Of a stretch of DNA of 23,209 nt, positions 4,406 to 5,093 are shown piece by piece. The notes beneath the pieces were generated by a model. The model made no database searches and had not been told where the DNA came from. It worked only from the letters and a program-made list of their open reading frames with translations. The stretch lies in NCBI RefSeq assembly GCF_003334355.1, contig NZ_QOWP01000045.1; one strand, given 5' to 3'. Position 1 is the first letter of the stretch. Each line of letters begins with the position of its first letter. This stretch comes from Escherichia coli. Its GTDB lineage: Bacteria; Pseudomonadota; Gammaproteobacteria; Enterobacterales; Enterobacteriaceae. Both the position numbers and the translations under genes were made by a program.

Positions 4406-4423
4406 TAAACACTAATGTTTACT
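4406..4423. promoter_or_regulatory. Palindrome GTAAACA-cta-ATGTTTAC upstream of hicA; candidate HicB operator
   Basis: Read directly: GTAAACA (4406-4412) and TGTTTAC (4417-4423) are reverse complements, about 35-50 bp upstream of the hicA start. The operator role is inference from known autoregulation of type II TA operons. Confidence 0.3.
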
Positions 4424-4454
4424 TTGTTGATATACTCAGCGGCAGGGAGGCGAT

Positions 4455-4631
4455 GTGAAACAAAGCGAGTTCAGACGTTGGCTCGAATCTCAGGGCGTCG
4501 ATGTAGCGAATGGCAGCAACCATTTGAAACTCAGGTTTCATGGGAGGCGCAGTGTCATGCCGCGTCACCCTTGCGATGAGATTAAAGAACCATTGCGTAA
4601 AGCAATCCTGAAACAACTCGGTTTGAGTTAA
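4455..4631 (+). CDS. hicA: HicA toxin (mRNA interferase) of the HicAB type II toxin-antitoxin system, 58 aa
   Basis: GTG start at 4455 preceded by GGGAGG (4445-4450); stop TAA 4629-4631. Translation MKQSEFRRWLESQGVDVANGSNHLKLRFHGRRSVMPRHPCDEIKEPLRKAILKQLGLS is the HicA dsRBD-like toxin. Below the 60 aa track cut-off, so not in the ORF list. Confidence 0.85.
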   Translation: MKQSEFRRWLESQGVDVANGSNHLKLRFHGRRSVMPRHPCDEIKEPLRKAILKQLGLS

Positions 4632-4655
4632 TCGCCAATTAAAAAGGTTAATGAC

Positions 4656-5093
4656 ATGCGAGGGACAGTCGAAATTATGCGTTATCCCGTCACTCTTACA
4701 CCCGCGCCGGAAGGCGGTTATATGGTTTCTTTTGTGGATATCCCTGAAGCGTTGACGCAGGGCGAAACTGTCGCTGAAGCGATGGAAGCGGCAAAAGATG
4801 CTTTACTGACCGCATTTGATTTTTATTTTGAAGATAACGAGCTTATCCCGTTACCTTCGCCATTAAATAGTCACGATCACTTTATAGAAGTACCTTTGAG
4901 CGTCGCCTCTAAAGTATTGCTGTTAAATGCTTTTTTACAGTCAGAAATCACTCAGCAAGAGTTAGCCAGGCGAATTGGCAAACCTAAACAGGAGATTACT
5001 CGCCTATTTAACTTGCATCATGCGACAAAAATCGACGCCGTCCAGCTCGCGGCAAAGGCGCTTGGCAAAGAGTTATCGCTGGTGATGGTTTAA
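4656..5093 (+). CDS. hicB: HicB antitoxin (RNase H-like N-domain with C-terminal HTH DNA-binding domain), 145 aa (or 138 aa from ATG 4677)
   Basis: ORF 4656..5093 begins 24 nt after the hicA stop. The C-terminal region (ITQQELARRIGKPKQEITRLFNLHHATKIDAVQLAAKALG) is an HTH. Toxin-first gene order is typical of hicAB. The alternative in-frame start at 4677 (MRYPVTL...) cannot be excluded. Confidence 0.85.
   Translation: MRGTVEIMRYPVTLTPAPEGGYMVSFVDIPEALTQGETVAEAMEAAKDALLTAFDFYFEDNELIPLPSPLNSHDHFIEVPLSVASKVLLLNAFLQSEITQQELARRIGKPKQEITRLFNLHHATKIDAVQLAAKALGKELSLVMV

Follow-up and report, generated by a model that had tools for sequence, protein, structure and literature searches.

A conserved palindrome in the chromosomal hicAB locus of Escherichia coli is almost certainly its operator and accounts for the start codon of an overlapping reading frame

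The stretch of DNA analysed here (23,209 nucleotides of Escherichia coli, referred to as the window) carries the toxin-antitoxin genes hicA and hicB, with the toxin gene directly upstream of the antitoxin gene and both on the plus strand (Table 1). A preliminary description, made from the letters alone, had recognised a type II, toxin-first hicAB pair, and this assignment is borne out by the RefSeq annotation, by Pfam domains and by PDB entry 6HPB, which matches both proteins; the start codons, reading frames and GGAGG motif that it listed are all present in the sequence, and its palindrome needs small corrections. HicA matches the HicA_toxin family (PF07927, E=3.7e-7, residues 5-57 of 58) and chain A of 6HPB (residues 1-58, E=1.9e-36), and its translation, MKQSEFRRWLESQGVDVANGSNH..., has at position 23 a histidine that corresponds to the catalytic residue of E. 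coli HicA (PMC8138530). HicB combines an N-terminal HicB domain (HicB_lk_antitox PF15919, E=1.3e-7) with a C-terminal helix-turn-helix domain (HTH_3 PF01381, E=2.8e-7), and all 138 residues of chain B of 6HPB are matched, with identity at every aligned position. A search of NCBIfam gave no match for HicA, HicB or the peptide of the alternative frame considered below, and a search of Rfam gave none at the hicAB locus.

The identity of the locus could be read directly from alignments: the 951 bases around it match one E. coli chromosome without a difference (100% identity) and K-12 MG1655 at 99.3% identity, and 5416 of the 5426 complete E. coli genomes match some part of this 951-base stretch. 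The RefSeq gene order is the chromosomal rlhA-yncJ-hicA-hicB-ydcR, with yncJ on the minus strand. A position in the window plus 1504831 gives the coordinate in NC_000913.3, which puts the hicA GTG (4455) at 1509286 and the ATG of the curated hicB (4677) at 1509508. This is thus the same locus as hicAB of E. coli K-12 MG1655 (hicA b4532 / hicB b1438), flanked there too by yncJ and ydcR; the operator, the P2 -10 element and the Shine-Dalgarno sequence are identical in the two strains, hicA differs by a synonymous change only, and the few substitutions include a G in this strain for an A in K-12 at 4663. The K-12 locus is reportedly the one studied by Jorgensen et al. in 2009 and by Turnbull & Gerdes in 2017.

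The locus is not intact throughout the species. The segment 4385-4470 is kept in 4254 of the 5426 complete E. coli genomes, and about a fifth are therefore without the operator and the 5' region of hicA. One sampled genome has a 445-bp deletion whose ends lie within the operator (4410) and in hicB (4854), others have a frameshifting 22-bp deletion within hicA (4572-4593), and Citrobacter rodentium has kept hicB and lost hicA.

Table 1. Features of the hicAB locus, in window coordinates
Feature	Position	Strand	Basis
Inverted repeat TCTGGAA-N6-TTCC, candidate CRP-S-type activator site of P1	4322-4338	+	Invariant in alignment A1
TATTTT, candidate P1 -10	4379-4384	+	TAT invariant in alignment A1
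GGAGG, Shine-Dalgarno-like, 9 nt upstream of ATG 4415	4401-4405	+	Sequence; Escherichia-specific
Predicted hicO operator, 18-bp palindrome GTAAACAC-TA-ATGTTTAC, predicted site of a HicB HTH dimer	4405-4422		Inverted repeat, conservation
54-codon reading frame, -1 frame of hicA, ATG at operator positions 11-13	4415-4579	+	Judged spurious
P2 extended -10, TG-a-TATACT	4428-4436	+	Sequence; TATnnT conserved in alignment A1
P2 transcription start (approximate)	4443-4444	+	Wording in PMC11878559, PMC7167474 and PMC6957337, with the Shine-Dalgarno position
hicA Shine-Dalgarno GGGAGG	4445-4450	+	Sequence; anti-SD duplex -11.1 kcal/mol
AUG-UGA start-stop overlapping the hicA GUG (AUGUGA context)	4453-4458	+	Sequence
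hicA, mRNA interferase toxin, 58 aa, GTG start	4455-4631	+	RefSeq, Pfam PF07927, PDB 6HPB
AAGGT, SD-like, 7-8 nt upstream of ATG 4656	4644-4648	+	Conserved in the E. coli-type clade
hicB long form, 145 aa, N-terminal extension MRGTVEI	4656-5093	+	In-frame ATG; PDB 6U0I
hicB curated form, 138 aa, antitoxin and HTH repressor	4677-5093	+	RefSeq/K-12; PDB 6HPB chain B

The preliminary description had found the sequence unable to decide between ATG 4656 and ATG 4677 as the start of hicB, and this judgement holds: curators use 4677, and there are features in support of each. That E. coli and its close relatives make HicB mainly or partly from ATG 4656, as a 145-residue protein with an extension of the type MR(E/D/G)xxxI, is a serious possibility to which we would give slightly less than even weight. 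In each of 11 examined loci from the E. coli-type clade, the upstream ATG precedes the ATG of the MRYP start by exactly 21 nt and always has an SD-like AGG 7-9 nt ahead of it (AAGGT, GAGGT, AAGGC or, in C. rodentium, AGGAG). The codon that follows this upstream ATG invariably specifies arginine, through the synonymous codons CGA and AGA; the predicted extensions read MR(E/D/G/A)xxx(I/P/T), and there are variants with 6 and with 10 residues, always in frame. The competing ATG 4677 is preceded by just GAG(G/A)G, at 13 nt, and it was the 145-residue form that was used for PDB entry 6U0I. However, the 138-residue form is that of RefSeq, of the K-12 curation and of the Gerdes/Brodersen structure 6HPB, and the Pfam HicB domain begins at MRYP (residue 10 of the 145-residue form). 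The MRYP start is present in every orthologue, with in-frame stops upstream of it in several, and it is the sole possible start, equally devoid of a Shine-Dalgarno sequence, in Salmonella, Pantoea, Serratia, Xenorhabdus and others; a counterpart of ATG 4656 is confined to the Escherichia/Citrobacter/Raoultella clade. Moreover, the absence of stops from five variable codons is not significant (P estimated at about 0.24), the in-frame indels come from gene callers and are therefore biased towards in-frame cases, and the duplex of the upstream AAGGT with the anti-SD is weak (-3.4 kcal/mol in this strain, in which neither hicB start has a strong Shine-Dalgarno sequence). The substitution at 4663 touches this question directly, as it replaces the glutamate of K-12 by glycine within the optional seven-residue extension or, if non-coding, gives GAGGG here and GAGAG in K-12. 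The curated start is thus not clearly favoured over the upstream ATG within the E. coli-type clade, which matters for the design of constructs and for structural work.

The control of the locus by two promoters is taken from the literature. In secondary accounts of Turnbull & Gerdes 2017, the upstream promoter P1 has a CRP-S site, is stimulated by Sxy/CRP and escapes repression by HicB, and its mRNA is translated into both the HicA toxin and the HicB antitoxin. The downstream promoter P2 is described in the same accounts as repressed by HicB through the operator hicO and derepressed by excess HicA; its transcript, which according to PMC11878559, PMC7167474 and PMC6957337 begins some one base ahead of the ribosome-binding site of hicA, gives HicB only, and excess HicA, by stripping HicB off the DNA, raises antitoxin synthesis selectively. 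The earlier suggestion that alternative translation might help control the toxin:antitoxin ratio is not supported; in the literature this ratio is already explained by the two promoters.

Both promoters can be placed tentatively on the window. As the hicA Shine-Dalgarno sequence lies at 4445-4450, the published wording puts the P2 start at about 4443/4444. TATACT at 4431-4436, preceded by TG-a, is 7-8 nt upstream of this predicted start and is unaccompanied by a -35 element; taken as an extended -10, it likewise points to 4443/4444 as the predicted start, one base ahead of (A)GGGAGG. A scan with the sigma-70 consensus detected neither P1 nor P2, since neither has a -35 element. The leader was compared within the E. 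coli-type clade (alignment A1: Escherichia, Citrobacter, Raoultella and locus L028), in which the invariant blocks are TCTGGAA-N6-TTCC, the TAT at 4379-4381, the operator, the P2 -10 and the Shine-Dalgarno sequence. The first of these blocks is kept in L028, whose hicAB has no yncJ neighbour, and thus belongs to hicAB. It fits the E. coli CRP-S motif TGCGA-N6-TTCCA (PMC6728893) in part (TGgaA / TTCCt for TGCGA / TTCCA) and, given this partial match, remains a candidate. Its distance to the TAT is 55-56 nt in all lineages, which would suit a class-I activator site at about -61.5, the position described for CRP-S promoters (PMC6728893), relative to a P1 start that we infer near 4391. Other CRP-S placements made by eye (TGCTA-N6-AGCAA at 4376, TGCGG-N6-AGTGC at 4363 and TTGCAAATTAGCGCAA at 4301) were dropped, as they are not conserved outside Escherichia.

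Between the candidate P1 elements and the P2 -10 lies the palindrome. The preliminary description had reported it one base too far downstream (4406-4423) and with a three-base spacer, cta; it is present, with seven-base arms at 4405-4411 and 4416-4422 (GTAAACA / TGTTTAC) separated by 4 nt. The same 18 bases can alternatively be read as an 8-2-8 palindrome with one mismatch (16 of 18 positions self-complementary), which in E. coli E69 is perfect (18/18), and the motif occurs once in the window. Conservation and placement of this element were read directly from a comparison set of 18 loci (one genome per species) and six more obtained through protein look-ups, all anchored on the hicA GTG. In 18 of 20 loci, a count that includes one site displaced by a deletion (L005), the consensus GTAARCATAAATGTTTAC lies about 50 to 33 nt upstream of this GTG, give or take 1 nt. 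It was found in Escherichia, Citrobacter, Raoultella, Superficieibacter, Pantoea, Serratia, Brenneria, Salmonella, Xenorhabdus, Photorhabdus and Hafnia, where the copy sits in a prophage, while the flanks diverge. The centres of the half-sites are 11 bp apart, the spacing expected for an HTH dimer, and the element spans -39 to -22 of P2, overlapping the -35/spacer region, a classic position for a repressor. According to reviews and later papers that discuss Turnbull & Gerdes 2017, HicB binds an inverted repeat, hicO, at P2. Conservation across genera at a near-fixed distance from hicA, while the surroundings diverge, argues that the palindrome at 4405-4422 is almost certainly a functional operator, which we infer from its position and conservation to be hicO; the earlier proposal of a candidate operator palindrome is in this respect well supported, both by this conservation and by the place of the element over the -35/spacer region of a HicB-repressed promoter. 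Consensus and fixed register would then be common to about 12 enterobacterial genera.

The preliminary description also pointed to a GGAGG placed 9 nt before an ATG at 4415 that opens a frame overlapping hicA. Motif and spacing are as it stated, and the frame has 54 codons. As a translated or regulatory reading frame, however, it does not survive comparison. The ATG consists of three bases of the right half-site ATGTTTAC, the mirror of GTAAACAT, and is itself mirrored by an equally conserved CAT/CAC at operator positions 6-8; it is thus fully accounted for by the symmetry of the operator. In two Citrobacter (L008, L011) it is replaced by ACG, and the GGAGG is absent from the homologous place outside Escherichia. 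The lack of conservation extends, by direct comparison, to the frame itself: it has 54-56 codons in Escherichia with an intact hicA and 71 in a frameshifted locus (L003), whereas outside Escherichia it has 0-23 codons (17, 6, 6, 23, or startless), and its peptide is not conserved among relatives. Nor is its length out of the ordinary. The window holds 99 reading frames of at least 54 aa. When hicA is recoded synonymously according to local codon usage, 9% of trials keep the frame open over 54 codons or more (P=0.09), and in real genes of the window open stretches of at least 41 codons take in 28% of the -1-frame positions. The combination GGAGG-N5-10-ATG is likewise seen 5 times in the window, for 3.1 +/- 1.6 expected.

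Predicted RNA structure and database evidence bear on the same frame. A hairpin of 10 bp is predicted for nucleotides 4402-4425 (-8.4 kcal/mol, z = -2.6). Both the GGAGG and the last two bases of the AUG are paired in it, and the Shine-Dalgarno sequence and start codon have a predicted mean unpaired probability of 0.28. Taken in full, the leader shows no unusual degree of structure (z = -1.9), and a second inverted repeat (4422-4428 / 4459-4465) is absent from the minimum-energy fold. The protein family search (NCBIfam) with the peptide of the 4415 frame gave no match, and the accessible texts and supplements of Ribo-RET, Onc112, small-ORF and N-terminomics studies hold no entry for hicA, hicB or their coordinates. 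The exact peptide does form an 8-member cluster of automatic gene calls in a protein collection, which reflects the response of gene callers to a strong Shine-Dalgarno sequence and not function. In the clade with two operators that is described below, the inferred -10 (TACTAT) is located downstream of the corresponding ATG, which is therefore probably not transcribed. We conclude that the overlapping frame is almost certainly spurious, a by-product of operator symmetry.

An Escherichia-specific upstream open reading frame on the P1 transcript, from which ribosomes would cross the hicA ribosome-binding site out of frame and so lower the yield of HicA, nevertheless has some attractions. The GGAGG is strong (-10.8 kcal/mol against the anti-SD) and ideally spaced; every Escherichia lineage in which hicA is intact, E. 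whittamii among them, retains the Shine-Dalgarno sequence, the ATG and the open frame, but divergence within Escherichia is too low for selection to show. A P1 start near 4391 would put both motifs on the P1 mRNA, although this start is our own estimate, and in the related loci L010 and L028 a frame of 6 codons follows an AAGGT-N9-ATG. Set against the operator symmetry, the ACG of the two Citrobacter, the unconserved length and peptide, the ordinary length and the predicted hairpin over the start site, these points leave the upstream frame improbable. Were it real, it would help to keep the toxin below the antitoxin on the sole mRNA able to make toxin. It would then be a case of co-option, restricted to Escherichia, in which a lineage-specific GGAGG turns the operator ATG into the start of an upstream frame that throttles toxin synthesis on the Sxy/CRP-induced P1 mRNA, and the binding of HicB to DNA and a hairpin in RNA would act on the same 18 bases; we regard this as a long shot. 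The analysis disposes of the overlapping frame as a false lead.

It is scarcely credible that the palindrome is instead a chance inverted repeat, or the site of another regulator, with HicB binding elsewhere: inverted repeats whose 7-nt arms are at most 6 nt apart do occur in 7.5% of random 221-nt regions of the same composition, so that the palindrome is weakly significant by sequence alone, but it is validated by its conservation across genera in a fixed register with hicA whatever the neighbours, including those of the Hafnia prophage, by the two tandem copies 21 bp apart in another clade, by the lack of a further inverted repeat near P2 and by the literature, which places an inverted-repeat hicO at this promoter.

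Taken together, it is very probable that the window carries the chromosomal E. coli hicAB working as published, with the palindrome as hicO, TGaTATACT as the -10 of P2, an ATG at 4415 made of operator bases and a 54-codon frame that is open by chance. The literature already covers the locus, the operator and the control by two promoters, and nothing substantially new is added to it here.

Comparison with other systems shows how the E. coli-type layout differs. The start region of hicA is one instance. hicA is tabulated among the genes that start with atGTG, with a Shine-Dalgarno sequence GGAGG at an aligned spacing of 12 (PMC9841429), and its GUG is overlapped by an AUG-UGA as in the ambiguous start-stop sites AUGUGA / GUGUGA exemplified by narQ in the same study. 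This context is found in Escherichia only, the other genera of alignment A1 having GCAGTG. Ambiguity is not predicted for hicA in PMC9841429, since the strong Shine-Dalgarno sequence is aligned to the GUG, and no hicA experiment is reported there.

The hicAB pairs of Salmonella, Pantoea, Serratia, Brenneria, Xenorhabdus, Photorhabdus and Hafnia are orthologues (60-78% identity in HicB) and share with E. coli the toxin-first order, the GTG start of hicA and the 18-bp operator consensus in the same register, about 50 to 33 nt upstream within 1 nt. In these loci, however, the operator is present as two tandem copies, 21 bp apart, around a canonical TTGACA-17-TACTAT promoter, whereas the E. coli type has a single operator. 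They are also without the TGGAA-N6-TTCC block and the P2-type -10, their hicA and hicB are separated by a GC-rich hairpin, and their hicB has no upstream in-frame ATG. In the chromosomal Escherichia/Citrobacter clade, an ancestral two-operator sigma-70 promoter has been replaced by the single-operator P1/P2 layout. The production of extra antitoxin from a transcript incapable of giving toxin is likewise found in other reverse-order toxin-antitoxin systems, namely mqsRA, rnlAB and toxTA of H. influenzae (PMC8138530, PMC6957337, PMC7167474). In these three systems the second promoter lies inside the coding sequence of the toxin, whereas in hicAB it precedes the toxin gene, whose ribosome-binding site it truncates.

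Many E. coli carry a decaying hicAB locus: the segment 4385-4470 of the window is missing from about 21% of complete E. coli genomes, and two deletions, one reaching from the operator into hicB and the other confined to hicA, were found in individual strains (see the table). In Citrobacter rodentium (L024), no hicA lies between yncJ and hicB, and the operator is reduced 5' of hicB to the remnant GTAAGCAATTGCG; hicB itself is retained, with a good AGGAG 9 nt upstream of its upstream ATG.

Sequence features and deletions at the hicAB locus, in window coordinates (L-numbers denote compared hicAB loci of other genomes; L028 is an E. 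coli-type locus without a yncJ neighbour)
Feature	Position	Occurrence or remark
Inverted repeat TCTGGAA-N6-TTCC	4322-4338	Unchanged in Escherichia, Citrobacter, Raoultella and L028
445-bp deletion, operator interior into hicB	4410-4854	One sampled genome (compare L022)
AUG-UGA start-stop over the hicA GUG (AUGUGA)	4453-4458	TGA immediately after ATG 4453; overlaps the real start
22-bp frameshifting deletion in hicA, hicB intact	4572-4593	Other E. coli strains (compare L021)

The AUGUGA context of the hicA start in the window contrasts with the GCAGTG found at this position in other genera. The gene is among those starting with atGTG in a published list, in which ambiguity was not predicted for hicA (PMC9841429). 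The octamer of the hicA Shine-Dalgarno region (4445-4452) recurs inside the gene as GGGAGGCG (4543-4559), 9 nt upstream of the in-frame ATG 4557 (Met35). Since this internal stretch codes for the conserved HGRRSVM, the second copy is probably a coincidence of coding. Within the optional seven-residue extension of HicB, between ATG 4656 and ATG 4677, this strain has a G at 4663 where K-12 has an A, giving Gly instead of Glu; if the stretch is untranslated, the G makes a stronger GAGGG, located 13 nt upstream of ATG 4677.

Further upstream, the inverted repeat TCTGGAA-N6-TTCC is followed 55-56 nt downstream by a conserved TAT (4379-4381). This makes the repeat a candidate CRP-S activator site for the upstream promoter P1, although it agrees only in part with the CRP-S motif published for E. 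coli. Between rlhA and yncJ, a sub-threshold Rfam match to naRNA4 (3963-4002; scoring 28.5 bits, with the gathering score set at 59.5) is probably a REP-type repeat.

The architecture differs from that of the E. coli locus in the hicAB loci of Salmonella, Pantoea, Serratia, Brenneria, Xenorhabdus, Photorhabdus and Hafnia. In this two-operator set (L012-L015, L023 and L025-L027), a TTGACA-17-TACTAT promoter is flanked by two tandem operators 21 bp apart, at about -71 to -33 relative to the hicA GTG, and the hicA-hicB spacer carries a GC-rich hairpin (e.g. AACCAGCCCTCCGGGGCTGGTT). This hairpin is reminiscent of the intra-operon terminator reported in an unrelated plasmid hicAB (PMC11878559).
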